Positions 25,715-61,802 of a stretch of 64,000 nt of DNA are shown in pieces. Under the pieces are notes generated by a model, which was not told where the DNA came from, ran no database searches, and saw nothing but the letters and a program-made list of their open reading frames with translations. A program made the position numbers and the translations under genes. Position 1 is the first letter of the stretch, and every line of letters begins with the position of its first letter. This DNA is from Candidatus Magasanikiibacteriota bacterium. GTDB taxonomy: Bacteria > Patescibacteriota > Patescibacteriia > Magasanikbacterales > UBA922. The stretch spans positions 110,555 through 174,554 of the forward strand of contig JBAYJP010000001.1 in NCBI GenBank assembly GCA_041665025.1, read 5' to 3'.

Positions 25715-25848
25715 ACATTCTTAATGTACCATAAATAGAGTTTTTTTCAAGTATGGTATACATACTAGAAAAAATTCTTACCTTCAATCCTTTACAAGTC
25801 TCTCTCTATTAACTATAATTTCTGCAACCCGCATACCGCGGGCAGGAG

Positions 25849-26100
25849 GTGAAACCCACCATGAACGGGAGGTGGTGGGAACAATTCCCGTGGGAGGTGT
25901 TTTTCCTCTTCGCCATCCTGGCGGTTCCGTGTCTGGCGGATGCTTTTAGTTCGCCAAACCCCGCCGAGATGGTAAAACTCCCTCCGTTGTTCGTCGGCCT
26001 TGAGTGCTTGGCTGGCGGACTTCTCATATCGCTTCTGCATGTACGCGACGAACGCCGCGATAGAAAGAAGCGGTACCTGCAGCAGAGCCAGGGCTGCTAA
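25849..26100 (+). CDS. small hydrophobic protein on GC-rich mini-island A
   Basis: GGAGG SD 9-11 nt upstream of the ATG. About 60% GC in an AT-rich genome. Followed by the hairpin terminator aacgccc...gggcgttttttt (26130-26165). The opposite-strand ORF starts with GTG inside the terminator and is rejected. Confidence 0.45.
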   Translation: MKPTMNGRWWEQFPWEVFFLFAILAVPCLADAFSSPNPAEMVKLPPLFVGLECLAGGLLISLLHVRDERRDRKKRYLQQSQGC

Positions 26101-26215
26101 CTCCTCGAACCCTGGCTTGATTCCTAAATAAAACGCCCACACAAAAGTTGCGGGCGTTTTTTTATTTACTATAATAGCAAAAACTAGAAAACAGCTAATT
26201 TAAGTGCTCGAATGA

Positions 26216-27853
26216 TTAGTGTTTCAGCGCTACTTTTATAAATTCTCTAAACAGCGGATGTGGTCGCATGGGACGTGATTTGAACTCGGGATGAAATTGA
26301 CTGCCCACAAAAAAAGGATGATCTTTTAATTCTACAATTTCAACTAAATTTGATTCTGGATTCACACCAACTACATGCAGGCCTGCTTTTTCCATTTCAT
26401 CGCGATAATCATTATTGAACTCATATCTATGGCGATGGCGTTCTGAAATTTTTTCTATCCCATACGCTTTGCCAGCCTTAGTTCCTTTTTTTAGTACGCA
26501 ATCATATGCACCGAGACGCATGGTACCACCATACCTATTTTCGCGCACATTTTGCGCCTGATGAGGATTGATATGAATGACAGGATTTTTTGTATCTGGA
26601 CTAATTTCAACCGTATGCGCGTCTTTTTTCCCCAGCACATTTCTGACAAATTCAATGGTGGCCAACTGCATACCATAGCAAAGCCCCAAATAAGGCTTTT
26701 TGTGTTCGCGGGCAAACGTAACAGCTTTGATAATCCCTTCCACACCGCGCGACCCAAATCCTCCAGGGACAATAATACCATCATACCCCGCAAGCATAGA
26801 GACTTTTTTGGAATCCTTTTCAAACTCTTCTGAGTCAATCCAATCAAGTGCAGGCTTTACATGATGAAACCAGCTTGCGTGTTTTATCGCTTCAATAACT
26901 GAGATATACGAATCAGACAATGTGAACGTGCCGGTTCCAAAATATTTTCCCACAACAGCAATTTTAACCTCTTTGGTACTTGTTTTGATCGTATGGACAA
27001 ATGTATTCCACGGAGTTAAGTCTGTTTTGCGTGGTCGTGTATGGAGCACTTTGAGTACTTTATTTCCGATTTGCTGTTCTTCCAGGCGAATAGGAATTTC
27101 ATAAATTGAAGGCACATCTGGAGCTGAGATACAATTTTCTTTTCTGACCCCACAAAACACGGCAAGCTTTTCACGGCGAGGTTTGTCTAATTCAAAAGGC
27201 CCGCGTGCGACGATAATGTCTGCTTGAATTCCTGCTGTATTCAATGTGCGTGCCGCATGCTGTGTTGGTTTGGTCTTCATCTCACCCAAATGAGAAGGTA
27301 CAGGCATATAGCTCACAAGAATAAAAGCTACATCATCTGGACGATTCATCTTCATCATGCGAGCCGCTTCGAGAAAAAGTAAATTTTGATATTCACCAAG
27401 CGTACCACCAACTTCAATAATCGTGACATCAGCATTTTTCTTTTCAGCTGCGGCAGTAATTCTCCTAATCACTTCCTCGGGAATATGAGGTACAACCTCC
27501 ACACAACGTCCTTTGTATTTCATGGCACGTTCATTTTCAATGACTGTCAGGTATACACGTCCCGTCGTCATGTAATTTTCTGAATTCAAATCAGTATCCA
27601 AAAAACGCTCATAATTGCCCATGTCCTGGTCTGTCTCGTCTCCATCATTTGTCACAAAAACCTCTCCGTGCTCTACCGGATTCATGGTTCCTGCATCAAC
27701 ATTGATATACGGGTCAATTTTAAGCGCAGTAACACTAAATCCTTTTGCCTCAAGTATAGCTCCGAGAGAAGCAGACGTTACTCCTTTTCCAACTCCGCTC
27801 AAAACCCCTCCTACGACAAAGACGTATTTACGTTTTTTAGTTTTTGCTACCAT
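26216..27853 (-). CDS. pyrG: CTP synthase
   Basis: YVFVVGGVLSGVGKG at the N-terminus and a glutaminase domain with GLCYGMQ. The start is set at MVAKTKKRKY; the 15-aa upstream extension in the ORF track is unlikely to be translated. Confidence 0.95.
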   Translation of the reverse strand: MVAKTKKRKYVFVVGGVLSGVGKGVTSASLGAILEAKGFSVTALKIDPYINVDAGTMNPVEHGEVFVTNDGDETDQDMGNYERFLDTDLNSENYMTTGRVYLTVIENERAMKYKGRCVEVVPHIPEEVIRRITAAAEKKNADVTIIEVGGTLGEYQNLLFLEAARMMKMNRPDDVAFILVSYMPVPSHLGEMKTKPTQHAARTLNTAGIQADIIVARGPFELDKPRREKLAVFCGVRKENCISAPDVPSIYEIPIRLEEQQIGNKVLKVLHTRPRKTDLTPWNTFVHTIKTSTKEVKIAVVGKYFGTGTFTLSDSYISVIEAIKHASWFHHVKPALDWIDSEEFEKDSKKVSMLAGYDGIIVPGGFGSRGVEGIIKAVTFAREHKKPYLGLCYGMQLATIEFVRNVLGKKDAHTVEISPDTKNPVIHINPHQAQNVRENRYGGTMRLGAYDCVLKKGTKAGKAYGIEKISERHRHRYEFNNDYRDEMEKAGLHVVGVNPESNLVEIVELKDHPFFVGSQFHPEFKSRPMRPHPLFREFIKVALKH

Positions 27854-27939
27854 AACTAAAATTATTAAGAAACAAATTCCAGCAACAGTATACCACAAAC
27901 CAACATAAATAAAAATCCCTCCGGAGGTGGAGGGACTAT

Positions 27940-28386
27940 TTATTCTTCGTAGACACTGACGCGGAGCTCTGCCTCAAGCCCGTGATTGAACCGCACAACT
28001 GCTCGATGTTCTCCGAGTTCTTTAATTGAATGTGGAATAAAAATTTGGACAGGCTTTATTGCCACGCCATATTGTTTTTTTATTACTTCAACAAGTTTAG
28101 AACCATTTACGCTTGCATACAACTTTCCTTCGCTATTTATTTTACCAAAAACCTCTAGTTCAGCCCCATCGAGCTTACCAGCAGTTTTCTGCTGTTCTTT
28201 GAGCTCTTGCTCAGCCAGCTTTGTCTTCTTTTTTTCCTGAGCCTCAAGCTGAACTACCACATCAGTCGTCATAATTTTGGCCAATTTTTTTGCCAATAAA
28301 AAATTTCGAGCATATCCTTCTGCTACTTCTTTTATATCCCCCTTTTTGCCTGTTCCCGATACATCTTGTAAAAGTATTACTTTCAT
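27940..28386 (-). CDS. rplI: 50S ribosomal protein L9
   Basis: [30 protein letters not shown] is a classic L9 N-domain. A hairpin terminator lies at about 27912-27945. Confidence 0.9.
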
Positions 28387-28518
28387 ACTCTATATATAAT
28401 AGAACAACCTTGAATTTTACGCAAGTACATGGTATTATCTCACTATTAGGCAAGGAAACCAGATACTAGAATGTGAAAGTCTATTCCGGTTTCCAGTTTC
28501 TTAATCCAATATCCCACT

Positions 28519-29367
28519 ATGAAATCTGGTTTTGCAATACTCGTAGGACGTTCAAATGTCGGAAAATCTACTCTTCTCAATACCCTGGTAGGAACCAAAA
28601 TTGCTGCCACGTCTTTTCGCGCACAAATGACGCGAGATATTATTCACGGTGTTGTCAACATGCCCGAAGGCCAGATTGTGTTTATGGACACACCCGGAAT
28701 ACTGAAAGAAAAACACAGTAGTCTGACAGGAAAATTGATTGAAAAAGCAAAAGATGCTCTTCAAGGTGTGGACGTTATCTTGTATGTAGTAGACCCAAGT
28801 CGTGAAATTGGAGATGAAGAAAAATTTACCTATGGTCTTATTCGCCATATTGAAGTACCAAAAATTTTGGTAATAAATAAAAGTGATTTGTCTCAATCTG
28901 AACGCAGACATCAGCAAGAATATGAACGATGGGGTTCTGATTTTAATGCCGTGTTTGCACTTTCTGCCCTTCGCGCAAGCCATATCCAACCACTCAAAGA
29001 AAAAGTTCTTGAACTTCTACCAGAAGGACAGCCTATGTATGATGGTGCTCAGCTTACAAATGTCCACGAATATTTTTGGGTAGGAGAATTGATACGTGAA
29101 AAAATATTTTCAGTATTTGATAAAGAAGTCCCCTATTCTATGACAGTGGAAGTTCAGAGCATAGAAGAAAAAAAAGATATGTTCGTTATTACCGCGCACA
29201 TACTTACTAATCAGGAACGATACAAAAAATTAATTATTGGCAAAGGTGGAAGCAAAATAAAAGAAATTGGTGTGATGGCCCGACGTGAATTGGAACAATC
29301 ACTTAATAAAAAAGTGTTTTTGGAATTAGAAGTTGAAGTTGATGGACATTGGATTGAGAGGGTTTAA
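28519..29367 (+). CDS. era: GTPase Era
   Basis: G1 GRSNVGKST, G3 DTPG, G4 NKSD and a C-terminal KH domain. Confidence 0.9.
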   Translation: MKSGFAILVGRSNVGKSTLLNTLVGTKIAATSFRAQMTRDIIHGVVNMPEGQIVFMDTPGILKEKHSSLTGKLIEKAKDALQGVDVILYVVDPSREIGDEEKFTYGLIRHIEVPKILVINKSDLSQSERRHQQEYERWGSDFNAVFALSALRASHIQPLKEKVLELLPEGQPMYDGAQLTNVHEYFWVGELIREKIFSVFDKEVPYSMTVEVQSIEEKKDMFVITAHILTNQERYKKLIIGKGGSKIKEIGVMARRELEQSLNKKVFLELEVEVDGHWIERV

Positions 29368-29376
29368 TAACAATAT

Positions 29377-29895
29377 ATGCCCGAACTAATAACCGAAGTA
29401 GACAGAAGTGACGGTGAAATTGGTGCTCGCCCGAAGACAGATTTTTTTACCAACCACGAGCTCATTTGCCGTACATCCCACCTATATCTGTTCAATTCAA
29501 AACGGCAACTCCTCATGCAATTGCGTGCCAAAAATAGAAAAAATTACCCAAATCAATATGATGCATCAGTATCGGGGACCGTGCGTGCAGGAGAAACATA
29601 CAACCAAGCGCTTGAACGAGAGATGAAAGAAGAATTAGGTATTTGCATACCTGCAACTATGTTTATAAAAGGATTTTATGAAGATGACATACACCGTTCG
29701 CACAAAATGTGCTTCTGGGGTATGTATGATGGTCCGATAGAAATCCAAAAATCTGAAATCGCTCAAATACTGTGGATCGACAGAACTGAACTCAAGAAAA
29801 AAATGGCAGAAGAAAAAGATAAATTTTGCCCTCCATTTTTAGAGGAACTGCATGAGATAATCCAAAAAAATTATTTAATAGAAGTATTTACATAA
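29377..29895 (+). CDS. NUDIX hydrolase
   Basis: Nudix box GTVRAGETYNQALEREMKEELGI, followed by a strong hairpin terminator at 29896-29928. Confidence 0.7.
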   Translation: MPELITEVDRSDGEIGARPKTDFFTNHELICRTSHLYLFNSKRQLLMQLRAKNRKNYPNQYDASVSGTVRAGETYNQALEREMKEELGICIPATMFIKGFYEDDIHRSHKMCFWGMYDGPIEIQKSEIAQILWIDRTELKKKMAEEKDKFCPPFLEELHEIIQKNYLIEVFT

Positions 29896-29932
29896 ATTCC
29901 CCCGAGTGCCGAGGGAATTTTTATTTTGTTTA

Positions 29933-30283: not shown

Positions 30284-30286
30284 ACG

Positions 30287-31651: not shown

Positions 31652-31677
31652 ATTAAAATTTTTCCTCTTTAAATAAA

Positions 31678-32934: not shown

Positions 32935-32986
32935 ACTGCAGGTTGATTTTATCTAAATACAATGGTATGATTATACATAATTTCAT

Positions 32987-37010: not shown

Positions 37011-37020
37011 ATCTAATCGA

Positions 37021-41447: not shown

Positions 41448-41582
41448 AAAACATTAATTTAAAAGATTAAGACAGATGGTATAGTAGCAAAAAAACGCTT
41501 ATTTGTAAATAAAAAAAGCTATACATTTTCTTGACTTTTCTGTATGTTATGATAACATCTTTCCTAGGAAAGGAGGCAACAG

Positions 41583-41777
41583 ATGGCTGACGAAGAAAAA
41601 GAGGCGAAAGCCCCGACCTCGTCGGGTGACGAGAAGAGAAAGGCCCTCCTCCGGGAGAAGGCAGCCCTGGAGGCCTACCTCGCGTTTCTCGAGACCGCGA
41701 ATAAGGCGGCGGATCAAGAACCGCCGTTCGAAGTCCCCGCCCGGTACGGAACCGGCACGACCACGGATCTTAAATGA
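41583..41777 (+). CDS. small hydrophilic protein on GC-rich mini-island B
   Basis: AAGGAGG SD 6-7 nt upstream of the ATG. About 62% GC. Charged coiled-coil-like 64-aa product. Confidence 0.4.
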   Translation: MADEEKEAKAPTSSGDEKRKALLREKAALEAYLAFLETANKAADQEPPFEVPARYGTGTTTDLK

Positions 41778-42060
41778 GCCCTTCTAGCTCGTGCTTCCCC
41801 CTAACTTATTAGTTCTTTGATAGATTAGGAAGGAAACTTGCATGAGCGGACGAAAAAAATAGTTCTTGTAACCAAAAACAACCATAAAAGGTTGTTTTTG
41901 AAAATTCGTAAATTGAAAATTTATTTGTATCCCTGCCTGCCGGCAGACAGGGAATCCCTTTCTTAAAGATATATTTTTCAAAAAAAAAGGGATTCCTCCA
42001 CTCATCCCGATTTCGCTTCGCTATATCGGGATTCGGTCGGAATGACAAATGTAAACTAAA

Positions 42061-48889: not shown

Positions 48890-48957
48890 AATGCTTGACC
48901 GAAACTATATAAAATGATAGAACATGATAAACCTAAGGCCGTGGAAAGGAGGACACC

Positions 48958-49662
48958 ATGGCCAAGCGCGTGAGACGCGCTCGTAGTGTGACCGGTGTCC
49001 CCACCCGGCCACAAGACCCGCTTCACGAGTGGCTCGGTATCACCGGGCTACTCATGAAACACGAGGTGACCGCGAACACCGTTACGGTTGTTCGTGGAAT
49101 CCTCGTTCTGCCGGTGATCATACTGGCAGGATTCGGCTTCAGTGGGGCGGCGTTTATTCTCCACCTTGTGAGCTGGTGGGGCGACGCCGTGGATGGTTCG
49201 GTCGCGCGCGAACGGCAGCGATGCGGCTACGTCGATAATCGGGATTTAGGGGAGTATCTTGACCCGATGGTCGACAAGGCTGCATGGGTGGCAGAGGCAA
49301 TGTTTTTACCTTTCGCCGCCCAAGCTGAACTCCGTCCGACGTGGGTGGTGGTAATCGCTATCGCGGCGATGTGTGTGCTCGTCCTCATCGAGGTTGCACT
49401 CGGCATCGTCCGGTGGCAAGATTACCACGCTAACACCAAGCAGACTACAGATGCGCCCAAACTCAACCTTGGGGCGCGCTGGTCAGGCAAGGTGAAGATG
49501 GTGCTCGAGGTCGCAGGACTCTCGACACTAATCCTTACCTCGTCCGACGAGGCTACTTGGTGCGTCCACGTGTGGGCGTGGGCGCTCGCGGCTGCTATGC
49601 CACTCGCCTCGCTCAGCCTGCTCCAAAAGATCTGGAGCAGGAAGGCTATAGTGGCAAACTAA
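48958..49662 (+). CDS. CDP-alcohol phosphatidyltransferase family protein on GC-rich island C
   Basis: Catalytic motif DAVDGSVARERQRCGYVDNRDLGEYLDPMVD (D-G-x2-A-R...G...D...D). AAGGAGG SD 5 nt upstream. About 62% GC versus about 32% in the flanks. Confidence 0.7.
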   Translation: MAKRVRRARSVTGVPTRPQDPLHEWLGITGLLMKHEVTANTVTVVRGILVLPVIILAGFGFSGAAFILHLVSWWGDAVDGSVARERQRCGYVDNRDLGEYLDPMVDKAAWVAEAMFLPFAAQAELRPTWVVVIAIAAMCVLVLIEVALGIVRWQDYHANTKQTTDAPKLNLGARWSGKVKMVLEVAGLSTLILTSSDEATWCVHVWAWALAAAMPLASLSLLQKIWSRKAIVAN

Positions 49663-49795
49663 GGAGCTACGCCCCGCGGGATTGGAGGATCCCCGGGGCG
49701 ATTGCGTTTTATAACACAGATTGCACAGAATAAAAAGGAAACACGGATTACTATTTCGGTGTATTCCTTGTCATTCCGTGTAATCCGTGTTCTAT

Positions 49796-50440
49796 CTATA
49801 CACCATGTCTAAACAAACTCACAAGCGCAAACCCGACTGACAACCCCAAAATTCCACTTGCAAATCTCAAAAATACTTCATTATCAAATACGAGTGCGAT
49901 AAGGATGGCGCACACTGCTAAAACCTGCAAAAACATTTTTATCTTTCCCCACAAATTTGCCATACGTACGGTCTTGAACTTCACATGAGCAACATATGCA
50001 CTGGCAATAAATATTATTTCAATGCCAAGTACAGCGATTCCAAGCCAAAAATTTAAATACTTAAAAACTAACAACAGCACCATGGAACCAATCAAAAATT
50101 TGTCCGCGAGTGGATCAATAAGCATGCCAAATTTGGTTATTTTGTTTTGAGTGCGTGCGAGAGATCCATCAAGCGCGTCAGTAAATGCAACTACTAAAAA
50201 TAAACCAACCCCTGTCTTGTAGTATCCATAAAGTATGGTGAAAAATACTACAGGGGTTGCGATAATGCGAAATATACTTATTTTGTTTGGCGTAATAGCA
50301 GATGGAAGCAATTTTAAAAATGTGCGGGCCAAAAAATAATCATGGGGATGAACTTCCTCTGCTTTGAGATAGGTGAACAAATCGTGGTTACGTTCCTTGA
50401 ACCGTTTGATAAAATTCATATTTTTCGCTAAACTATACAT
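49796..50440 (-). CDS. CDP-alcohol phosphatidyltransferase family protein (native AT-rich copy)
   Basis: AFTDALDGSLARTQNKITKFGMLIDPLADK motif and multiple TMs. Confidence 0.75.
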   Translation of the reverse strand: MYSLAKNMNFIKRFKERNHDLFTYLKAEEVHPHDYFLARTFLKLLPSAITPNKISIFRIIATPVVFFTILYGYYKTGVGLFLVVAFTDALDGSLARTQNKITKFGMLIDPLADKFLIGSMVLLLVFKYLNFWLGIAVLGIEIIFIASAYVAHVKFKTVRMANLWGKIKMFLQVLAVCAILIALVFDNEVFLRFASGILGLSVGFALVSLFRHGV

Positions 50441-55146: not shown

Positions 55147-55149
55147 ACT

Positions 55150-55238
55150 TTAAATCTCAAAATTCAAATATCAAAAGTCAAAACTACAACTAAAAACTTA
55201 AAAGTTTATAGTTTTGAGATTTGACTTTTGAGTTTTCA
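55150..55238. repeat. family D palindromic element (immediately upstream of the methyltransferase start)
   Basis: aaatctcaaaattcaaatatcaaaagtcaaaactacaactaaaaacttaaaagtttatagttttgagatttgacttttgagttttcaa. Confidence 0.6.
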
Positions 55239-55636
55239 ACGCTCAGTATACCACATTTTAGAATAAAAAAACTACTTTTCTATAGTAGTCATTCGTGCTG
55301 ATATGGAGTGTGTCGCGCGCCCGGTGACGGCGGCGGAACGCCTAGCGACATCCAGAATTGGATGCCACCGTCACCGGGACACGCGCGGATCAGCGATCGA
55401 AGGCCTTGCCGCTTCCGGTTCTGCTCGCGATGTACGCGCATCGGCACTGCCGTGCCTCCTCGCGACTTGCGTGCGAACCGCTGCAGAAGCGACACGCCTT
55501 GACCCGCCGATTCTTGCTCTTGCTGGGACGAGGCATCCCAACCTCCTTCCTCGCGCGCCTCCGTGGCGCGCACAATGGTTCACATCATACACAAAAAAAG
55601 TCCAGATGTCAATCTGGACTGTAAAAAAATACAAAA

Positions 55637-55782
55637 CCCCGTTCGCACAAGTCACGTGGTCGCGAAGCGACTTTACGTGACTGTCACGTGTCCGCCCAAA
55701 GCGGATTTACGTGACATAACCTCCCCCACACTTCTACCAAATATCTGATAAAAGTATGGGCGAGTGCGAACGGGGTCGTTGC
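55637..55782. promoter_or_regulatory. putative operator/iteron region: 12-bp inverted repeat (ccccgttcgcac / gtgcgaacgggg) enclosing repeated ACGTG-containing sites
   Basis: gtcacgtggtcgcgaagcgactttacgtgactgtcacgtgtccgcccaaagcggatttacgtgaca has TTTACGTGAC x2 and GTCACGTG x2. It lies inside GC-rich island D, downstream of the 55829..56104 gene. Confidence 0.3.
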
Positions 55783-55828
55783 ATCGCCCTCTTGTTTTCG
55801 GTGGTGACCGAGCTTTCATGATCCCCCC

Positions 55829-56104
55829 TCACCCGCCCAAAAAATACCTCGGGCTGTATACCGGCTTGCGGCATGCGGCGCACTTGCCGGCGTTCTTGTC
55901 CTCGTCGTGGACGAGAACTGCGCCGCATCCGGTGCACCGGATGACCTTGGCGATGTTCGCCGGCGCCCTTGAGCAGTTCGCGTACTTGTTGACGTGGACG
56001 TGTACCTTCTGCCCCTTCCCCTTCTTCTTGTTCTTCACCTTTCCCCCACTGTTCTTCCAGCCCTTCTGTCGTTTCTTCTCACCCGTCGGGTTGATCTGCG
56101 CCAT
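55829..56104 (-). CDS. small Lys-rich protein with C-terminal CxxC...CxxC zinc-ribbon, on GC-rich island D
   Basis: GAGGAGG SD 6 nt upstream of the ATG. 91 aa: basic N-terminus, then IRCTGCG...KCAACRK. Confidence 0.45.
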   Translation of the reverse strand: MAQINPTGEKKRQKGWKNSGGKVKNKKKGKGQKVHVHVNKYANCSRAPANIAKVIRCTGCGAVLVHDEDKNAGKCAACRKPVYSPRYFLGG

Positions 56105-56301
56105 CGATCCTCCTCGTCAGCCGCCCAATATGTCGGGCGGGAAAATGGTTGCAACTATCCTCTCAAACTCTCTCTCTCTTGTCAACATCGTTTGCACATT
56201 TCATCAACAACTATCACTAAACATGGGTTGATAAATAAAGGTTAGTAAGGTAATATACGTGGGCGTTGGGTTAAGAAACTGGAAACCAGAATATATATCC
56301 G

Positions 56302-57774
56302 GTGTCTGGTTTCCTAACCCATCGCCCTTCCCATATGGTAGATATTACAGAGCTCGAAAAAATCCCCCCTCAAAACCTCGAAGCTGAAATGTCTTTACTC
56401 GGGTCTATTTTGCTTGATAAAGAAGCGCTTTTGAAAATCGCTGACATGATTGATAGTGATGATTTTTATAAATCGATACACAGTGACATTTATGAGACCA
56501 TGCTTGAGTTGTATGAAAAAAATGAACCCATAGATGTCTTGACCATGGGAAACAGATTGGAAGAAAAAAAGTTATTAGAAAAAATTGGTGGACGAAGTTA
56601 TTTGGTAAACTTATCAAATACCGTTCCTACTGCTTCGCATGTTCCCAAATACGCAGAAATTATTCGAAGAAAATCTACTTTGCGAAAACTCTTGCGTTCT
56701 GCGCAAGAAATATCACGATTGGGATACAAAGAAGATGCGGAAAGTGTCGAGTACATACTTGATGAAGCGCAACAACAACTATATAGCGTCACGCAAAAAC
56801 ATTTAAAGCAGACATTTACGCCCATTAGAGGAATTCTAAGCGATGCGTTTGAACGTATTGATGAATTGCATAGAGAAAAAGGAAAACTCCGCGGTGTGCC
56901 AACCGGATACAAACAATTGGACAACTTGCTTGCGGGATTGCAAAAGTCAGACCTCGTAATTCTCGCTGCTCGTCCATCAGTTGGAAAAACATCTCTCGCG
57001 CTTGATATGGCGCGCAATGTCGCAGTCCGCGCAAAAGTACCGGTCGGCATATTTTCGCTTGAAATGAGTAAGGAACAACTCGTCGATCGTCTACTCTGCG
57101 CTGAAGCTGGTGTTGATTTGTGGAAAATGAGAACAGGAAATTTATCTGACCGCCCAGATAGTGATGATTTTCCACGCATTGGACATGCGATGGGCGTGTT
57201 ATCTGAATCCCCTATTTTTATCGATGATTCTCCGGGAAATAACGTCATGCAAATACGCACGAAAGCTCGACGCTTGCAAGCAGAACATGGTCTCGGACTG
57301 GTAGTGATAGACTACTTACAACTCATGGAATCGCCAAATTCAAAAGGCAATGACAATCGTGTTCAGGAAGTCGCGGAAATCAGTAGAAATTTAAAAGGCC
57401 TTGCGCGTGAACTCAATGTGCCTGTGCTTGCGTTATCACAGCTATCACGTCTCGTAGAACAACGCAAGCCGGCAATACCAAAACTTTCTGATTTGCGCGA
57501 ATCAGGATCTATTGAACAAGATGCTGATGTAGTAATGTTTATATATAGAAAGTCCGCAGACAGAAACTACCGATTGGAAGATGTACCGCCCGATGAACGA
57601 AGTATTGCAGAAATTCATATCGCAAAACATAGAAATGGTCCGACCGGCATGGTGCGTGTATTTTTTGATGAACAGCGTGCGAGTTTCAGAAATTTGGACA
57701 CTCAGATGGGAAATTTTACCCCTCCACCACAATCAATGCCTCCACAAAAGACAAATTCGGTGCCAGCGTTTTAA
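56302..57774 (+). CDS. dnaB: replicative DNA helicase DnaB
   Basis: N-terminal NLEAEMSLLGSILLD, RecA-like domain with GKTSLALD and the H4 motif. A possible true start is MVDITEL at about 56335. Confidence 0.9.
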   Translation: MSGFLTHRPSHMVDITELEKIPPQNLEAEMSLLGSILLDKEALLKIADMIDSDDFYKSIHSDIYETMLELYEKNEPIDVLTMGNRLEEKKLLEKIGGRSYLVNLSNTVPTASHVPKYAEIIRRKSTLRKLLRSAQEISRLGYKEDAESVEYILDEAQQQLYSVTQKHLKQTFTPIRGILSDAFERIDELHREKGKLRGVPTGYKQLDNLLAGLQKSDLVILAARPSVGKTSLALDMARNVAVRAKVPVGIFSLEMSKEQLVDRLLCAEAGVDLWKMRTGNLSDRPDSDDFPRIGHAMGVLSESPIFIDDSPGNNVMQIRTKARRLQAEHGLGLVVIDYLQLMESPNSKGNDNRVQEVAEISRNLKGLARELNVPVLALSQLSRLVEQRKPAIPKLSDLRESGSIEQDADVVMFIYRKSADRNYRLEDVPPDERSIAEIHIAKHRNGPTGMVRVFFDEQRASFRNLDTQMGNFTPPPQSMPPQKTNSVPAF

Positions 57775-57853
57775 AACATTAGTTCAAGCTGAAAGAATAG
57801 ATTTAAACTGAAAAAAATTTCTGTTTAAATCAATTTTTAATCAGTATAAATCA

Positions 57854-58162
57854 ATGCTTATGTTCAATAAGTTAAAACAATTCAAAGACCTCCGTAGTCA
57901 GGCAAAAACATTACAAAATACCTTGTCTCAAGAGAGTATTACGGTTCGCGCAGCTGGAGATCAGGTTGTACTTACAATGGATGGCAACCTCACGTTGACT
58001 GGTCTTGCAATTGACGATGCACTTCTGGCACCCGACAAAAAAGACAAACTTCAAAATGCAATCAAAGAAGCTCATGCAGATGCACTCAAAAAAATGCAAC
58101 GCATCATGGCAATGAAGATGAAAGAAATGGGGGGTTTACCTAACATTCCAGGACTAAACTAG
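57854..58162 (+). CDS. ybaB: nucleoid-associated protein YbaB/EbfC
   Basis: About 100 aa, ...GDQVVLTMDGNLTLTGLAIDDALLAPDKKDKLQNAIKEA pattern. Located immediately upstream of recR. Confidence 0.85.
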   Translation: MLMFNKLKQFKDLRSQAKTLQNTLSQESITVRAAGDQVVLTMDGNLTLTGLAIDDALLAPDKKDKLQNAIKEAHADALKKMQRIMAMKMKEMGGLPNIPGLN

Positions 58163-58234
58163 TTCGTAGTTCATAGCCAATAGCCAATAGTTTACAATCG
58201 CCAATTTATTGGCTGTGAACTATTGGCTATGAAC
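58161..58234. repeat. family B palindromic intergenic element
   Basis: agttcgtagttcatagccaatagccaatag...ttattggctgtgaactattggctatgaac. Confidence 0.6.
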
Positions 58235-58238
58235 TTCT

Positions 58239-58838
58239 ATGTACGCTCAACCCATAGATAAACTAATCAAAGCATTTTCCAAGCTTCCAAGCGTCGGCCC
58301 GCGTACAGCCGAACGTTTTGTTTTTTATCTTCTTAAATCAGGGAAAAAGGATGCTGGAGAACTTACCCTGGCATTAAAAGAACTAATTGAAAATGTAAAA
58401 AGCTGTGAAGTCTGTTGGAATTTTTCTGATACAAGTCCGTGTGAAATTTGTACTGACACAAGACGGCATTACAAGACAATGTGTGTAGTTGCCGAGCCTC
58501 AAGATTTACAGACTCTTGAAAAAACACATCACTATCATGGCGTGTACCATGTATTGCGCGGTACACTTGCACCCGACGATGAATATATCATGAAGACGGT
58601 CAAAATCAATGAGCTCATGAATCGCGTACAGAAAAATGAAGTGGATGAAGTAATACTTGCCTTAAACCCGGACATAGCTGGAGAGACGACCATGATGTAT
58701 TTACAAAAACAACTAAAAACTATCCGTCCTGATCTCAAAGTTACCAGACTAGCTCGCGGATTGCCTATGGGTAGCGACTTACAATATGCTGATGAAATAA
58801 CGATTGAAAGTGCACTAAAAAATAGAACTCAAAACTAA
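58239..58838 (+). CDS. recR: recombination protein RecR
   Basis: HhH LPSVGPRTAERFVFYLL, a C4 zinc finger (CEVC...CEIC) and a Toprim domain. Confidence 0.9.
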   Translation: MYAQPIDKLIKAFSKLPSVGPRTAERFVFYLLKSGKKDAGELTLALKELIENVKSCEVCWNFSDTSPCEICTDTRRHYKTMCVVAEPQDLQTLEKTHHYHGVYHVLRGTLAPDDEYIMKTVKINELMNRVQKNEVDEVILALNPDIAGETTMMYLQKQLKTIRPDLKVTRLARGLPMGSDLQYADEITIESALKNRTQN

Positions 58839-58868
58839 AATCCTCCCGAATTTGGGAGGATTTATTTT
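58839..58868 (+). terminator. hairpin aatcctcccgaatttgggaggatt + T-run (recR terminator)
   Basis: Perfect 9-bp stem followed by TTATTTT. Its 3' arm (GGGAGG) doubles as a possible SD for the next ORF. Confidence 0.6.
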
Positions 58869-59096
58869 ATGGGAACGGCTGGCCTCGAGCATTTGCTTGG
58901 CTCGAGTGGGTGGGTTGTGGAGCCGAATGGAGCTCCTGCCCAAGACCAGCCGATCGACTGCCACAGGTTGTTCGCTAGCGACCCTGTATCGGAATTTCCG
59001 GGGACGGGAAGCTTTCCGTCCTGCCCAGGGGCTGCAAAAACCTACGACAAATCGACGAAGCACCTTATCACAAAGACGATAAAATGTCGACAATAA
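58869..59096 (+). CDS. small hypothetical protein on GC-rich island E
   Basis: ATG 10 nt after GGGAGG. About 58% GC. Followed directly by the terminator aaaacccgcgtctttgcgggttttt. Coding status is uncertain. Confidence 0.35.
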   Translation: MGTAGLEHLLGSSGWVVEPNGAPAQDQPIDCHRLFASDPVSEFPGTGSFPSCPGAAKTYDKSTKHLITKTIKCRQ

Positions 59097-59125
59097 AACC
59101 CGCGTCTTTGCGGGTTTTTATTTTT
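59096..59125 (+). terminator. rho-independent terminator aaaacccgcgtctttgcgggtttttattttttt
   Basis: Perfect GC stem plus a long T-run. Confidence 0.65.
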
Positions 59126-59137
59126 TTATTCTGTTTA

Positions 59138-59452
59138 CTAAGCTACTTTCGCTATCTTCACTTTCGTAAAATGCTGTCTATGTCCATGTACTTTGTGATA
59201 ACGAATTTTTCTCTTGTATTTAACTACTCTAATCTTTTTAGCTCTGGCTTGTTCTTCTACAGACGCAGTCACTTTTGCACCAGAAACATATGGAGCGCCA
59301 AGCTGTATATTTAGACCATCTTCATCGCTAAGAAGCAATACCTGGTCAAAAACAGCTTCTTTACCTGCTTCAAGAGCTAATTTCTCTATTCTTAAGGTGT
59401 CACCAGCCTTTACCAGATACTGTTTTCCACCTGTTGCAATAACGGCTAACAT
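59138..59452 (-). CDS. rplU: 50S ribosomal protein L21
   Basis: MLAVIATGGKQYLVKAGDTLRIEKL is a classic L21 N-terminus. 104 aa. Confidence 0.9.
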   Translation of the reverse strand: MLAVIATGGKQYLVKAGDTLRIEKLALEAGKEAVFDQVLLLSDEDGLNIQLGAPYVSGAKVTASVEEQARAKKIRVVKYKRKIRYHKVHGHRQHFTKVKIAKVA

Positions 59453-59539
59453 AATTTTTAAATTTAGATTATTAGATAATTGGTATTAGGGAAACGGTGA
59501 TAGTTTAGCTCATTTAAAAAGAAAAGTCAAGGGGTTGGA

Positions 59540-59640
59540 TAAGTTGACTAAGTTTTCTAAATTTACTAAGTATCTAAGTTATAGAAAACCAATCACAACT
59601 TAGCCAACTTAGGTACTTAATAAACTTAGTTACTTTGGTA
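59540..59640. repeat. family C palindromic intergenic element (actaagt/acttagt words)
   Basis: gttgactaagttttctaaatttactaagtatctaagttatagaaaaccaatcacaacttagccaacttaggtacttaataaacttagttac. Confidence 0.6.
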
Positions 59641-60097
59641 AGGTCATTACATCCCCTATCTTAAGCCCATTTTTCTGCGTCCAGCCAGCCTGCAGTTCAA
59701 GGACCAAATTTGCCTCTGTACGCGGATAATAGCGTGCCAACTCTTGTTCCGAAGCATCTGGTTCGATGGGGACATTGGGGGCAATATCCACAACTACCCC
59801 ATCTTTAAGCCACACAATGTCAATGGGAAATTCCATGTCCCTCATGACAAACGTATGCTTATCAAGTAAATAAAATGGAAAAATCATGCCATCATACGGC
59901 GCAAGTTGTTTTCTTCCGCCCAAGCCTTTGTATTGTTGATATATATTCTTTGCTACGAGTACATGCAATTCTTGATCTTTCAAAGAAATACTCATACTAC
60001 TCCAGTGAAACCGTTGCCAAAAAAATAAAAAAATGGCAGTAGCAAAAAAAATACCGATAAAATATAACATTTTTTTGGATAATGGTTTTGATGACAT
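59630..60097 (-). CDS. DUF192 domain-containing protein
   Basis: N-terminal TM, then ...YDGMIFPF....FVMRDMEFPIDIVWLKDGVVVDI...LVLELQAG matches the DUF192/COG1430 pattern. Confidence 0.65.
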   Translation of the reverse strand: MSSKPLSKKMLYFIGIFFATAIFLFFWQRFHWSSMSISLKDQELHVLVAKNIYQQYKGLGGRKQLAPYDGMIFPFYLLDKHTFVMRDMEFPIDIVWLKDGVVVDIAPNVPIEPDASEQELARYYPRTEANLVLELQAGWTQKNGLKIGDVMTLPK

Positions 60098-60188
60098 AAT
60101 ATACAGCTCATGTACGAAATACGAAAGCTACGAAATATCCGAAATAACACTTTCGTACCTTTCGCAGTTTTCGTATTTCGTACATAAA

Positions 60189-61253
60189 TCATTCTTTACC
60201 TTGTCCATTTCTTTTAGAGAAATATATCCCTACTAATAGCATTAGTATAAACAAAAACACCAGTGCAATCAACTTTTGTTTGCTCTGCAAGAATAATGCG
60301 GAAATACCAAACAAAAGCGCAATGGCATACAACAAAATTACTGTCTGTTTTTGGCTCATTCCTGATTCAAGCAACTGAAAATGCAAATGTTCATTATCTC
60401 CTACATATACCGGTTTGCGTTTCTGAATACGACGAACGATGACGCGCACTACATCCAAAACAGGTACAGCCATAACTAATAGTGTGGTTGCAATCTTTCC
60501 TCCAGAAACAATAGCCAAAGATGCTAACATAAATCCTGCAAATAAACTGCCACCTTCACCTAAAAATATTTTTGCTGGATGCCAATTCCATACCAAAAAA
60601 CCAAGAACAGTACCCGCAAATACAATAGATAAGACCGCTACGTCTGGCTGATACCATTGTTTTTGTATTGACAAAAAGAAAATAATCAAAGCTCCAATAC
60701 TTACAATACCCGACACCAGGCCATCAAGACCGTCTAAAAATTTTGTTGTAAACATCATGCCCATGAGCCAGAGGAAAACGAGTGAGTCAGCAACAACTAC
60801 AAGTGTACCCAATCCGTCAACCGTAATTTTCCATTTTGATAAATCAATAATACCACCCCAAGGACTCGTGATAACGTGCGGTCCAATGCCAAACGCAATT
60901 ATACAAAGGGCTGCTAACACAGGAAATAAAATCTGATATCGCGGACGGAGTACATATTTATCATCGAGTAGTCCGCCGATCATCAAAATTAACCCTCCTA
61001 CAAAAAGTCCAAGAATATTTCTCGGCACAACATCTATTTCAAAATATCTTCCCGTACTTAAAATAAATGCAATCACCACAAAAAAACTCACAAAAATTGC
61101 AAGCCCACCTCCAAGAGGCACACTGTTTTTATGAATTTTTCGTTCATCCTTTTTTGCTCTGTCTATTACATCCAGTTTTCGCATGAGAATAGCAACAATG
61201 CCAGTAAGAATGAGGCAAAGGAGAAAAGAGATAAAAAAATAGGCTAAGTACAT
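60189..61253 (-). CDS. polyprenyl-phosphate N-acetylhexosamine-1-phosphate transferase (MraY/WecA family)
   Basis: 10-11 TMs, VPLGGGLAIF, a DD-containing loop LLDDKYVL and the MraY/WecA cytoplasmic-loop pattern. Confidence 0.75.
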   Translation of the reverse strand: MYLAYFFISFLLCLILTGIVAILMRKLDVIDRAKKDERKIHKNSVPLGGGLAIFVSFFVVIAFILSTGRYFEIDVVPRNILGLFVGGLILMIGGLLDDKYVLRPRYQILFPVLAALCIIAFGIGPHVITSPWGGIIDLSKWKITVDGLGTLVVVADSLVFLWLMGMMFTTKFLDGLDGLVSGIVSIGALIIFFLSIQKQWYQPDVAVLSIVFAGTVLGFLVWNWHPAKIFLGEGGSLFAGFMLASLAIVSGGKIATTLLVMAVPVLDVVRVIVRRIQKRKPVYVGDNEHLHFQLLESGMSQKQTVILLYAIALLFGISALFLQSKQKLIALVFLFILMLLVGIYFSKRNGQGKE

Positions 61254-61386
61254 ATAATAATTTTCATGAGTATTTTACTCCACTTACGTTTCCTTGACAA
61301 CTCTCTCTCTCTTTGTTAGCGTTATCTCAAGTTTCTCGGTAGACGCCGAGAATTTTGCCGAATGACGCACAGCGCGGAGGACGTCG

Positions 61387-61662
61387 ATGAGTACTCTCTT
61401 TTACATCGGGGCACTGGCAGGGTGGATCGCCGTCGGCTTCTACGTCGCCGCCATGTGTCTCCCCAAGGTCGACCACACGATGTTGGGCAAGCTGTTGAAG
61501 TGGCTCGATGTGCTCCCCAGTCCGAGCAACGTGATCCTCAAGTTCATGGCGGGGTTCATGCTCGCCATCGCTGTCGTCATCCTCCTGCTCAGCTGGGGTG
61601 CGGTCTGGCCGCTGTCCATCCCCATCGAGCGCTTCGTCTACTGGTGGCGACGGCGGGCGTGA
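61387..61662 (+). CDS. small 2-TM membrane protein on GC-rich island F
   Basis: GCGGAGG SD 6 nt upstream of the ATG. About 62% GC. Followed by a second SD plus a 16-codon Cys-rich micro-ORF and a 12-bp inverted repeat (aaacccacctgc...gcaggtgggttt). Confidence 0.4.
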   Translation: MSTLFYIGALAGWIAVGFYVAAMCLPKVDHTMLGKLLKWLDVLPSPSNVILKFMAGFMLAIAVVILLLSWGAVWPLSIPIERFVYWWRRRA

Positions 61663-61802
61663 ACAACTTCCGACTTCGGTCGGCGCGGTTCAAGGAGGGA
61701 CGCGATGGAAAGGACGACGAAACCCACCTGCGACTGCGTATGTGTCTGAATATCAGACATATACGAAGGAGATGCAGGTGGGTTTTGTTGTATAGAAATA
61801 TT

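Follow-up and report, generated by a model that had tools for sequence, protein, structure and literature searches.

Foreign-looking GC-rich mini-genes in an AT-rich CPR genome: transferred or maintained?

The 64,000-nucleotide stretch of a Candidatus Magasanikiibacteriota genome analysed here (the window), part of the chromosome of an ultra-small bacterium of the Patescibacteria (CPR), carries short GC-rich blocks in an AT-rich backbone. This raises the question of whether these foreign-looking blocks are genes, and whether they were recently transferred from a high-GC organism or have been maintained as they are.

GC-rich blocks and their boundaries

The six GC-rich islands (A to F) listed in the initial annotation were borne out by a scan in 200-nt windows. 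Over the whole window, GC outside the islands averaged 0.379 (sd 0.049, maximum 0.525), values of 0.53 or more were found in island windows alone, and the islands peaked at 55–66%. A seventh block, which reaches the same GC range, had been overlooked; in it, GC hairpins are scattered among incomplete copies of the tRNA-Gln 3′ half. In the islands, the GC-rich block is the predicted transcribed block, UTRs included (UTRs, GC 0.48–0.72; flanks and promoters, 0.22–0.38). The islands had been taken for one family, and this was not upheld: no sequence kinship was found between them, and A, B, C, D, and F, as far as their sequences tell, are alike in format only. Transposon ends, target-site duplications, and inverted repeats flanking the islands were searched for and none was found; the islands also had no Rfam, tRNA, phage-family, or defence-family matches.

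An assembly chimera, with reads of a high-GC organism joined into a CPR contig, would account for the jump in composition and for nothing else. However, independent assemblies of other samples (Logan SRR6484324 and JGI 3300037810) contain islands C and D, together with the native DNA on either side, at 100% identity, orthologues lie at the same junctions in other genomes, and the islands are exactly intergenic with host-type promoters. These observations effectively refute a chimera.

Table 1. Features of the GC-rich islands (positions in the window; promoters and terminators are predicted).
Feature	Position	Strand	Description
Seventh block	9824-10020	+	non-coding; just after tRNA-Gln; terminator at end
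A block	25800-26165		GC 0.54
A promoter	25791-25819	+	TTTACA, 17-nt spacer, TATAAT
A ORF	25861-26100	+	79 aa; small protein, two hydrophobic segments
A intrinsic terminator	26133-26164	+	ACGCCC...GGGCGT, then T-run
B block	41550-41800		GC 0.59
B promoter	41531-41558	+	TTGACT, 16-nt spacer, TGaTAACAT (extended -10); by eye
B ORF	41583-41777	+	64 aa, acidic; AAGGAGG 41570-41576
C block	48925-49710		GC 0.60
C promoter	48895-48923	+	TTGACC, 17-nt spacer, TGaTAGAAC
C ORF	48958-49662	+	234 aa; AAGGAGG 48946-48952
C terminator hairpin	49670-49712	+	CGCCCCGCGGGA...TCCCCGGGGCG; also in L084 orthologue
D block	55275-56170		GC 0.575; mid-block dip to ~0.50
D2 promoter	56157-56185	-	TTGACA, directly (AG)6, then TGaGAGGAT
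D2 ORF	55829-56104	-	91 aa; basic N-terminus, CxxC...CxxC zinc ribbon
SD-led small ORF	55673-55819	-	runs into 5′ arm of P1 of the D 3′ element
D 3′ element	55623-55777	-	structured, downstream of D2; fold z = -10.7
D hairpin terminator (55620-55599)	55584-55620	-	overlaps predicted D1 promoter
D1 promoter	55612-55584	-	TTGACA, 17-nt spacer, TATGAT; 11/12 consensus positions
D1 ORF	55390-55536	-	48 aa; basic, Cys-rich (CxxC...CxC)
E block	58850-59125		GC 0.52; weakest of six
E structured segment	58864-59095	- (strand uncertain)	GC-rich; fold z in text
F block	61320-61800		GC 0.57
F promoter	61294-61322	+	TTGACA, A, (CT)6 (61301-61312), TTGt, TAGCGT; 17-nt spacer, extended -10
F ORF	61387-61662	+	91 aa; small membrane protein; GGAGG 61376-61380
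F mini-ORF, 3′ end	61706-61750	+	SD-led, 14 codons; overlaps 5′ arm of terminator hairpin
F compound terminator hairpin	~61714-61791	+	z = -8.0

Gene format and coding signal

Five of the six islands (A, B, C, D, and F) are real protein-coding transcription units, laid out as a predicted sigma-70-like promoter, which lies in flanking AT-rich DNA, a GC-rich leader, often opening with a stem-loop, AAGGAGG or GGAGG, an ORF, and a predicted hairpin terminator. The SD motif and ATG proposed for each island were confirmed in A (GGAGGTGA, ATG 25861), B (AAGGAGG, ATG 41583), C (AAGGAGG, ATG 48958), and F (GGAGG, ATG 61387). Island D has two minus-strand ORFs, with GGAGG before 56104 and AAGGAGG before 55536. 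In E the proposal is doubtful, as the GGGAGG there belongs to the recR terminator hairpin, of which it forms the 3′ arm. The SD-led ORFs had been described as the longest ones. This does not hold for A, D, and F, where another frame or the opposite strand offers longer ORFs, yet it is the SD-led ORFs that carry the codon periodicity.

The GC3 of the SD-led frames is 0.69–0.87, against 0.26–0.37 in native genes. The codon-position pattern in the island ORFs is GC1 > GC2 < GC3, with values of 0.61/0.41/0.69 in A and 0.65/0.48/0.71 in B. The statement that native genes lack SD motifs also held: 55 out of 59 native ORFs had none at the first in-frame start codon, and in 40 out of 59 every start codon among the first 60 codons lacked one. 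The islands other than E and native genes differ in both composition and translation-initiation signal, as had been claimed. Predicted terminators were found for A, C, F, and both D genes, and two hairpins flank E. For B there is no GC-rich terminator, and the single hairpin, some 100 nt downstream (~41873–41900), is AT-rich.

The predicted products are one CDP-alcohol phosphatidyltransferase (C), two basic zinc-ribbon proteins (D1 and D2), two membrane proteins (A and F), and one acidic peptide (B), which is probably helical. This agrees with the earlier product list for A, C, and F and for the zinc ribbon of D, which proved to be two genes; the ORF listed for E was not supported. The protein status of A, B, D1, and F rests on the SD, the periodicity, and the ORF length, and the island products would be lineage-restricted accessory proteins. 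The A ORF had no match in Pfam, PHROG, NCBIfam, or PADLOC, and the B ORF no protein-family match. The leader of A (25822–25860, 67% GC) forms the hairpin CCCGC-ATAC-GCGGG followed by the SD, and the A transcript has a fold z of −6.3.

Island E lies between the recR terminator (58838–58863) and a terminator on the rplU side (59095–59118). Its proposed plus-strand ORF (58869–59096) has GC of 0.54/0.53/0.59 by codon position, without periodicity, and the segment folds much better on the minus strand (z = −6.1) than on the plus strand (z = −2.2). Therefore E is probably not the proposed ORF. No Rfam match was found for E, and it is absent from the relatives compared. The claim that the islands are coding and not stable-RNA genes stands for A, B, C, D, and F, but not for E.

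Islands C, D, and F in related genomes

The host DnaB is 76% and 74% identical to those of Magasanikbacteria MAGs, and the gene order HIT-PMT-CDPOH-GT4-DnaB-YbaB-RecR-L21-DUF192-MraY-ClpB is kept in relatives. Insertion into a conserved gene order was confirmed: in L003 (DnaB 76% identical) only 26 bp separate the PMT and CDP-OH genes, the site of C, and most relatives lack any counterpart of D2 or F. Absence at the syntenic junctions was found in part. The islands are missing there, or unrelated GC-rich mini-genes take their place, but orthologues of C are kept in a sub-lineage. Units of the island type occur at the same junctions in L004, L009, L016, L084, and L086, and L016 has two of them (GC3 0.93–0.98).

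The assignment of C was confirmed by Pfam (PF01066, 51.8 bits against a cut-off of 22, E = 1.5e-13), with the motif D-x2-DG-x2-AR...G-x3-D-x3-D intact, and its protein is a divergent member of the CDP-alcohol phosphatidyltransferases. The searches gave only three matches, all from the same lineage and the same junction; L083 and L084 carry orthologues at this PMT/CDP-OH junction. The catalytic motif is kept in three orthologues, and dN/dS is 0.11–0.23. The L084 orthologue has a matching promoter (TTGACG, 17-nt spacer, TGgTACAAC). The divergence of the orthologues matches that of the native genes beside them; dS is 1.5–3.2, a rough estimate at saturation. They have 54% GC in genomes of 34–37% GC, and GC3 of 0.59–0.75 beside native genes at 0.26–0.37.

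D2, annotated at NCBI as hypothetical protein WCW16_00860, has GGAGG, a 5′ leader hairpin, and GC3 of 0.84. Among 1.84 billion representatives one true homologue was found, P0006, likewise in an AT-rich relative; it is 62% identical with the cysteines kept (dN/dS ~0.5). The orthologue has GC3 of 0.82 within a context of 33% GC. The D2 promoter architecture, whose (AG)6 is (CT)6 on the plus strand (56168–56179), is identical in the homologous locus L166. The D 3′ element consists of an outer 15-bp stem (P1) followed by a U-run; the stem encloses P2, a hairpin of 15 bp, along with one or two further hairpins of the form GTCACGTAAA...CGTGAC. In its alignment with L166 and L084, 8 out of 34 pairs showed compensatory changes and none was broken in P1 or P2; it is, by this comparison, a conserved and covarying RNA structure. 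A covariance model found three copies only (this locus, L166, and L084) in 1.46 Mb, and there was no Rfam match. D1 has a leader hairpin (GCGCGCC-ACGG-AGGCGCGC) with AAGGAGG, a long hairpin and terminator on its 3′ side (~55267–55388), GC of 0.51/0.67/0.73 by codon position, and a transcript fold z of −5.0. A D1-like promoter and leader lie at the end of L166.

Could the islands be structured non-coding RNA genes, GC-rich in an AT-rich genome, with ORFs that are accidents of stop-poor sequence? GC-rich DNA does yield long ORFs by chance, A, D, and F each have several open frames, and E without periodicity, the covarying D element, and the excess structure of A, the 5′ part of C, and D1 all fit such genes. 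But the strong third-position periodicity lies in the SD-led frames, purifying selection acts on the enzyme C, D2 is conserved as a protein, its cysteines included, Rfam gave no match, and the coding regions of B, D2, and F have no excess structure. We consider this explanation very improbable.

F, annotated at NCBI as hypothetical protein WCW16_00895, has a leader hairpin (CTCGG...CCGAG) and GC3 of 0.87. No homologue of its ORF was found among 5.8 billion clusters, and no viral relative. At the same MraY/ClpB junction, L004 has TTGACA-T-(CT)4-TTGc-TAGAGT, with a spacer 4 nt shorter than that of F, and its terminator aligns with the 3′ end of F; the gene between encodes a 61-aa membrane peptide. 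Since A (79 aa), F (91 aa), and this peptide are small and hydrophobic, with structured leaders and 3′ ends and rapid sequence turnover, they might be type I toxin-antitoxin-like units, with long-lived mRNAs controlled by antisense RNA. However, type I toxins are typically shorter than A and F, each of which contains two hydrophobic segments, the antisense promoter and RNA are hypothetical, the format is common to the non-toxin genes C, D1, D2, and B, and no PADLOC or Pfam toxin family matched. Such a system is quite improbable.

Transfer or maintenance of the GC-rich state

The initial annotation proposed transfer from a high-GC, SD-using donor. If this was recent, composition and SD would be un-ameliorated signatures without present function. 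Recent transfer is partly supported: composition, codon usage, and SD are all sharply unlike those of native genes, the islands break into an otherwise conserved gene order and are absent from close relatives such as L003 and L004, and the genes around them form a cell-envelope cluster, a kind of region that is typically variable. But it is not a sufficient explanation. No donor homologues of C, D2, or F were found among 5.8 billion clusters, and none of D2 among 1.84 billion representatives, and C and D2 are vertically inherited within the sub-lineage and still GC-rich, C at saturated dS. Promoter and terminator are conserved between orthologues, the edge of the GC block is the predicted transcript start and not an arbitrary insertion end, and the flanks lack target-site duplications and inverted repeats. 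Moreover, bacterial genes that are acquired or ORFans usually exceed the recipient genome in AT content. We therefore regard recent transfer as unlikely, and for at least two genes (C and D2) it is not enough by itself. The other proposal, an undescribed class of small inserted genes, is compatible with the evidence.

As C and D2 have stayed GC-rich in the orthologues from AT-rich genomes, C at saturated dS, their GC-rich state has been maintained through long vertical descent, not merely left un-ameliorated. Only these two island genes have orthologues, and the argument is built on three lineages for C and two for D2. A very GC-rich ancestor with slow amelioration is a less probable alternative. 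Our preferred reading, held tentatively, is that the islands are lineage-restricted accessory genes whose mRNAs are kept GC-rich and hence need an SD.

GC could also have been driven up locally at recombination hot spots, through GC-biased gene conversion or some other bias at the DNA level, without benefit to the transcript. The rise in GC extends to every codon position and to the UTRs, and the sites vary between relatives, which is consistent with frequent recombination. However, the blocks (250–900 bp) have sharp edges a few nt from predicted transcript starts and terminators, and neighbouring promoters and native genes are still AT-rich, so that this process is quite improbable.

Under the preferred reading, A, B, C, D (two genes), and F would be autonomous monocistronic units in intergenic gaps of an AT-rich, SD-poor backbone, which may have entered by transfer originally, and selection on the transcript would maintain their GC-richness. 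The predicted MFE is −0.36 to −0.49 kcal/mol/nt in islands and about −0.2 to −0.25 in native segments, so that, nucleotide for nucleotide, the predicted folding of island mRNAs is about twice as strong, and their 3′ hairpins are predicted to be very stable. The island mRNAs have 5′ stem-loops, strong SDs, and large 3′ hairpins, which are known determinants of long bacterial mRNA life. Dinucleotide shuffles were surpassed in structure by A, by C in its 5′ part, and by D1. For the B, D2, and F coding regions, folding was no better than in shuffles of the same composition; any selection there would act on GC content as such, with a putative benefit. Testing for k-mer avoidance did not point to escape from a sequence-specific RNase. 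A folded GC-rich mRNA may be unable to initiate without a strong SD, whereas the unstructured AU-rich native leaders could. Units would turn over rapidly between relatives, sometimes with promoter and terminator kept and the ORF different. Finally, (CT)6/(AG)6 tracts occur in two promoter spacers (D2 and F) and a (TC)4 tract (25799–25806) in that of A, and these tracts may tune or switch expression.

Composition, start signals and coding capacity of the islands

All six GC-rich islands (A to F) listed in the initial annotation were recovered at their positions between 25805 and 61800, with a peak GC of 0.55–0.655 in 200-nt windows, in a host of 38.8% GC. Outside the islands, windows of the same size had a mean GC of 0.379 (sd 0.049, maximum 0.525) and none reached 0.53. 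A seventh GC-rich block, absent from that list, lies directly past a tRNA-Gln gene.

The proposed layout of a Shine-Dalgarno (SD) sequence ahead of an ATG was found in A, B, C, F and both units of island D (D1 and D2), where AAGGAGG or GGAGG stands 4–9 nt before the ATG, but not in E, where the supposed SD forms the 3′ arm of the hairpin that terminates recR and the ORF has no periodicity. The SD-led ORF had also been taken as the longest of its island, which is wrong in A, D and F, where other frames hold longer ORFs. Third-codon-position GC (GC3) of the SD-led ORFs is 0.69 in A, 0.71 in B, 0.69 in C, 0.73 in D1, 0.84 in D2 and 0.87 in F, and GC2 is the lowest of the codon positions in every one but D1. 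In native genes, those of the AT-rich backbone, GC3 is 0.26–0.37 (n = 11). Coding periodicity belongs to the SD-led ORFs and not to the longer alternative frames. That native genes mostly lack SD sequences was confirmed: of 59 ORFs, 55 lack one at the first in-frame start codon, and in 40 no start codon among the first 60 codons has one.

The view that the islands are coding and not stable-RNA genes holds for most of them, on periodicity, Pfam matches and orthologue conservation, but not for E. No match inside the islands was obtained with Rfam 15 or ARAGORN (tRNA, tmRNA), at gathering and permissive settings, over the whole window, E, D and the tRNA-adjacent block; permissive Rfam searches of the same regions gave terminator-like noise only. 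Known RNA genes were rejected, tRNA-Gln(CTG) being the only call by either tool in the window.

The DnaB gene (56302-57774) is 76% and 74% identical to those of Magasanikbacteria MAGs and less so to those of other Patescibacteria, and therefore the host is a CPR bacterium. The island C protein was also found on the 282-kb contig k141_705746 of ENA assembly ERZ27249449 and on an independent Logan contig (SRR6484324). Since C and D with their native flanks are base-for-base identical to assemblies from other samples, chimeric assembly of these two islands is ruled out. The PGAP annotation already has C, D2 and F as proteins, and NCBI names the island proteins as Candidatus Magasanikbacteria bacterium (locus tags WCW16_00860 and WCW16_00895).

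In island D, the gene caller of a public assembly took ORFs of 125 and 155 aa on the strand opposite to the conserved, periodic, SD-led ORFs. Cumulative GC skew falls steadily from 24000 to 64000, a stretch in which native genes mostly use the minus strand. Island genes A, B, C and F run opposite to their neighbours, probably head-on to replication, and D1 and D2 are co-oriented with theirs.

Coordinates and sequence elements of the islands and associated features (window positions unless a locus of a related genome or other assembly, L001 to L166, is named)
Feature	Position	Strand	Detail
ORF A	25861-26100	+	
ORF B	41583-41777	+	
ORF C	48958-49662	+	
ORF D1	55390-55536	-	
ORF D2	55829-56104	-	
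ORF F	61387-61662	+	
Predicted promoter A			TTTACA, 17 nt, TATAAT
Predicted promoter B			TTGACT, 16 nt, TGaTAACAT
Predicted promoter C			TTGACC, 17 nt, TGaTAGAAC
Predicted promoter of C counterpart	L084		TTGACG, 17 nt, TGgTACAAC
Predicted promoter D1			TTGACA, 17 nt, TATGAT; 11 of 12 consensus positions
Predicted promoter D2			TTGACA, (AG)6, TTTGAGAGGAT
Predicted promoter F			TTGACA, A, (CT)6, TTGtTAGCGT
Spacer tract, D2	56168-56179		(CT)6 on plus strand
Spacer tract, F	61301-61312		(CT)6 on plus strand
Spacer tract, A	25799-25806		(TC)4
SD-led mini-ORF	55673-55819	-	
SD-led mini-ORF	61706-61750	+	
SD-led mini-ORF	L084 about 9690-9790	-	
SD-led mini-ORF	L166 581-634		
D 3′ element	55623-55777	-	alignment
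D 3′ element	L166 597-717		alignment
D 3′ element	L084 9624-9726	-	alignment
Called ORF in island D	L001 16346-16723 (window about 55303-55680)	+	public assembly gene caller
Called ORF in island D	L001 16807-17274 (window about 55764-56231)	+	public assembly gene caller
tRNA-Gln(CTG)	9752-9823		
Block past tRNA-Gln	9824-10020		

Islands and their junctions in related genomes

Island C had been read as encoding a CDP-alcohol phosphatidyltransferase, and PF01066 agrees (51.8 bits against a cut-off of 22, E = 1.5e-13). This domain, the complete catalytic motif D-x2-D-G-x2-A-R...G-x3-D-x3-D and an adjoining native paralogue are as in the PgsA/PssA-like family, but C is 23% identical to that neighbour and has a longer AR-to-G spacer in the motif. 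Three orthologues and the native paralogue all share residues D76, D79, G80, A83, R84, G98, D102 and D106. The protein scores too low for the PgsA equivalog model (TIGR00560, 42.1 bits against a cut-off of 109.1) and falls under every NCBIfam equivalog cut-off. C is convergent to the AT-rich paralogue (49796-50440), a pair also present in L083 and L084. Genes for the cell envelope and for lipids (PLD, PMT-like, GT2, GT4, MraY-like and epimerase genes) cluster across the 25–62 kb region.

The order HIT-PMT-CDPOH-(hyp)-GT4-(MT)-DnaB-YbaB-RecR-L21-DUF192-MraY-(hyp)-ClpB is kept across Magasanikbacteria, Uhrbacteria and beyond. Absence of the islands from the junctions of relatives was seen in L003, where the PMT/CDP-OH gap is 26 bp, but C and D are present in a sub-lineage (L083, L084 and L166). 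No sequence of D, E or F was found in L003, L004, L005, L065 or L031, and none of A, B, E or F in roughly 160 related DnaB loci. Relative to this conserved backbone the islands are insertions, two of which, C and D2, have long been resident in a sub-lineage.

In L083 and L084 the exact PMT/CDP-OH junction is occupied by orthologues of C, with amino-acid identities of 69% and 59% respectively. The native genes on either side have diverged just as far, and the orthologues have 54% GC in genomes of 34% and 37%. Codon analysis gave dN/dS of 0.11–0.23 and dS of 1.5–3.2, which is saturated, so that these estimates are rough; third positions of identical amino acids match near-randomly. GC3 of C (third-position C+G) is 0.59–0.75 in three lineages, versus 0.18–0.38 in the adjacent native CDP-OH and HIT genes.

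For D2, a full HMMER search of 1.84 billion representatives returned one true homologue (P0006, 62% identical). Two other, weak matches, P0007 and P0008, were rejected as generic zinc-ribbon repeats, and a PDB search gave RING-finger noise only. The gene for P0006 lies on L166 and has GC3 of 0.82 in an AT-rich context, with 34% GC upstream of it and 33% in the DUF559 gene next to it. The cysteines are retained, at a dN/dS of about 0.5. L166 shares with D2 a TTGACA-(AG)n promoter, the same 3′ element and, further on, a D1-like promoter and leader, and the D2/L166 leader hairpin carries compensatory changes. The AT-rich DUF559 (endonuclease-like) gene of L166 (845-1207) is an insertion that separates the D2 3′ element from the D1-like unit.

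The initial annotation proposed a high-GC, SD-using donor or, alternatively, an undescribed class of small inserted genes. Homologue searches with C, D2 and F returned same-lineage matches only. Composition and codon usage of the islands are atypical in the way of genomic islands, and plain recent HGT, which would account for this, remains a rival explanation; at the divergences reported for C and D2, however, the orthologues have not ameliorated. Like genomic islets and ORFan accessory genes, the islands are short, lineage-restricted, deviant in GC and codon usage, variable, and placed between core genes. They differ in deviating to higher GC in an AT-rich genome, in having no donor homologues found, in keeping the deviant composition in orthologues (in C past synonymous saturation), and in that the block is a predicted transcript and not an insertion with mobile-element ends. 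Intergenic DNA has 22–38% GC, so the mutational equilibrium is AT-rich, and foreign DNA evolving neutrally would be expected to have shed most of its excess GC by such divergences. This suggests that the GC-rich state of the islands has been maintained, an argument drawn from two gene families (C and D2) with rough, saturated dS. gBGC remains a rival explanation of the same composition.

A repeated mobile-element family was rejected: no sequence is common to the islands and there are no TSDs or TIRs. Island edges carry no direct or inverted repeat of at least 10 nt, the best being of chance size (8–9 nt), and no transposase domain was found in the island ORFs. Phage or defence origin was also rejected, with no PHROG or PADLOC matches and no viral-contig relatives of C or F.

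Units of the same format were found in relatives. At the MraY/ClpB junction, the slot of F, L004 has a 61-aa membrane-protein gene whose promoter is TTGACA-T-(CT)4-TTGc-TAGAGT and whose terminator aligns with that of F, and BLASTP found no similarity between the two proteins. In the slot of D, just upstream of DnaB, L016 has SD-led ORFs of 44 and 29 aa (GC3 0.98 and 0.93), and L084 has a 106-aa SD-led GC-rich ORF, with no BLASTP similarity to D2, followed by the same 3′ element as D2. Thus conservation is greater in the slots, and sometimes in the expression signals, than in the ORFs. L009 and L086 hold more such units, the ORF of L086 being lipoprotein-like. Just upstream of the F-like unit of L004 (14826-14912) is a small hairpin repeat, GTCCCGTWAGGGACGACAGAT, in two copies. 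At the contig end of L003 (1-570; Magasanikbacteria MAG, 32% GC) there is a gene fragment of 55–56% GC with a Nudix-box-like motif; GC-rich genes of the lineage are therefore not limited to very small ORFs.

Type I toxins, usually under 60 aa with one transmembrane helix, remain a rival reading of A and F; A has 79 aa and F 91 aa, with two hydrophobic segments each, and the unit of L004 has 61 aa. The islands also resemble integron cassettes: their genes are small ORFans of unusual composition, a large imperfect palindrome comes after each, and the frame is kept when the ORF differs (D2 and the L084 ORF; F and the L004 ORF). Unlike cassettes, they are dispersed singly, 2.5–15 kb apart, each with its own promoter and U-run terminator, and no array, no integrase in the islands and, by eye, no GTTRRRY core were found; the D 3′ element occurs just three times in 1.46 Mb.

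Architecture of the units and proposed expression

Promoters and transcript ends were predicted from sequence. In all units the promoter sits within the AT-rich flank, and the GC-rich block runs from the predicted transcript start through the terminator, with UTR GC of 0.48–0.72 versus 0.22–0.38 in flanks and promoters. Most leaders open with a short GC hairpin, and 3′ hairpins are very stable (z = -8.0 in F, z = -10.7 in D). Per nt, the units have roughly double the predicted folding energy of native segments. Folding beyond dinucleotide shuffles was seen in D1, in A and in the 5′ part of C (z = -5 to -6), and no such excess in the coding parts of B, D2 and F. Escape from a sequence-specific endoribonuclease was rejected: over 2.7 kb of island transcripts, a test for k-mer depletion showed only the usual TAG/TTA scarcity.

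The structured element downstream of D2 folds into an outer 15-bp stem followed by a U-run and an inner 15-bp hairpin. Across its three copies, compensatory changes affect 8 of 34 pairs, and the two helices contain no broken pair; the window copy has two extra GTCACGTAAA...CGTGAC hairpins. No further copy was found in the 1.46 Mb of related loci with its covariance model (R1), and Rfam gave no match. The element is at least an intrinsic terminator. SD-led mini-ORFs of 14–48 codons start just past the main ORF and enter the 5′ arm of the terminator outer stem, as at the D 3′ element in all three genomes; the 14-codon ORF of F overlaps its terminator. Speculatively, they might point to translation-sensitive termination. 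Between island D and the methyltransferase gene lies a long AT-rich palindrome (55150-55240; …ctcaaaattcaaatatcaaaagtcaaaac…gttttgagatttgacttttgagttttc), to which miRNA models gave weak, meaningless matches.

The only dinucleotide repeats of at least six units in the 64 kb are the two (CT)6 tracts, which adjoin TTGACA and take up the spacers of D2 and F. A shorter tract abuts the -35 hexamer at the same place in A, and all three read CT on the plus strand, even that of D2, whose transcription is from the minus strand. Tracts of five or more units are rare across 2.37 Mb of related loci, with seven in all, none abutting a -35 hexamer; shorter tracts beside TTKACA, ahead of GC-rich blocks, occur in L004, L166 and L086. 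Phase-variable promoters with dinucleotide repeats between -35 and -10 are known, such as the (TA)n of Haemophilus influenzae hifA/hifB, and the simple-sequence repeats in the spacers of D2, F and A resemble them in architecture. By contrast, the island tracts are short and no length variation was seen within the population: L165, the sole other same-strain assembly, is identical over (AG)6, and L166 keeps the spacer length of D2 via substitution. The F-position promoter of L004 has two repeat units fewer, giving a 13-nt spacer that is putatively non-functional. The tracts of D2, F and A are candidate phase-variation or triplex-forming tracts.

Long-lived Gram-positive mRNAs can owe their stability to stem-loops at the 5′ end and to strong SD-like sequences, as in the STAB-SD GAAAGGAGG of Bacillus thuringiensis cryIIIA and the aprE and ermC leaders of B. 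subtilis. More generally, a 5′ hairpin, a strong SD, a compact GC-rich body and a large 3′ hairpin are known to prolong bacterial mRNA life. The island units are similar in their 5′-proximal hairpins, in GGAAAGGAGG or GGAAGGAGG near the 5′ end (B, C and D1) and in their very stable 3′ hairpins, but the island transcript is GC-rich throughout, coding region included, and its stability is predicted. The favoured reading is that the units are accessory genes for small lineage-specific proteins, whose whole transcripts would be kept GC-rich and would therefore depend on a strong SD, whereas native genes would initiate on unstructured AU-rich leaders; by analogy, this feature set would match the determinants of long mRNA life.

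A more far-reaching reading, which we consider unlikely, is that these are a previously undescribed class of "insulated" expression units in Magasanikbacteria and related CPR. Fixed intergenic slots, in which the promoter (at times bearing a (CT)n switch tract) and the structured terminator are both conserved, would frame a GC-rich SD-dependent ORF that is replaced or diverged beyond recognition between relatives; whole-transcript GC-richness would be actively selected. The resulting mRNAs, hyper-stable and perhaps phase-variable, would encode small proteins that act at the surface, in the membrane or on nucleic acids in an episymbiotic lifestyle. No account of GC-rich SD-led mini-genes in Patescibacteria turned up in full-text searches of the literature, nor of transcript-delimited GC-rich SD-dependent units, with composition conserved in orthologues, in an SD-poor CPR genome. 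Atypical-composition accessory genes are an already known kind; the transcript-delimited, SD-dependent pattern is what would be new.

CPR/Patescibacteria are uncultivated, reduced and probably episymbiotic, and their lineage-specific small proteins are almost wholly uncharacterised. If the islands are maintained GC-rich and SD-dependent in a genome that elsewhere does without SD sequences, they offer a natural within-genome contrast of two translation-initiation modes and a case of individual genes held far from mutational equilibrium in nucleotide composition, and they show that to equate atypical composition with recent HGT can be misleading. A search of CPR metagenomes for this format (AT-rich promoter, GC-rich leader, AAGGAGG, GC3-rich ORF, big hairpin) could bring out genuine small proteins where gene callers choose the wrong frame, as in island D, and the (CT)n promoter tracts could mark candidate switchable genes with a part in host interaction. 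Should the islands instead be plain acquisitions that have yet to ameliorate, their interest would be modest.

Island E and the block past tRNA-Gln

GC-rich ncRNA islands in AT-rich genomes are the basis of GC-based ncRNA screens in AT-rich hyperthermophiles. The sharp GC peaks of the window are alike, and E, the D 3′ element and the block past tRNA-Gln fit this description, but most islands are protein-coding. For E, an ncRNA gene remains a rival explanation: its fold is more stable on the minus strand (z = -6.1 versus -2.2 on the plus strand), and it has no Rfam match and no counterpart in relatives. E may be a structured RNA or a decayed remnant.

The block past tRNA-Gln is non-coding (fold z = -3.8). 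Besides a second T-arm and acceptor end of tRNA-like form (GGTTCAAATCCAAGTCCTCGAGC), it contains the tRNA-Gln 3′ half in another copy, split by a GC hairpin and followed by a terminator. It looks like integration/excision scars at a tRNA gene, or a tRNA-derived structured RNA. Its double GC hairpin, CCGCCAGAGGCGG-ACCAGCC..GGCTGG (9843-9873), is 93.5% identical over 31 nt to L063 547-577, in AT-rich DNA of a Falkowbacteria MAG, and may be a small REP-like palindromic element common to CPR lineages.
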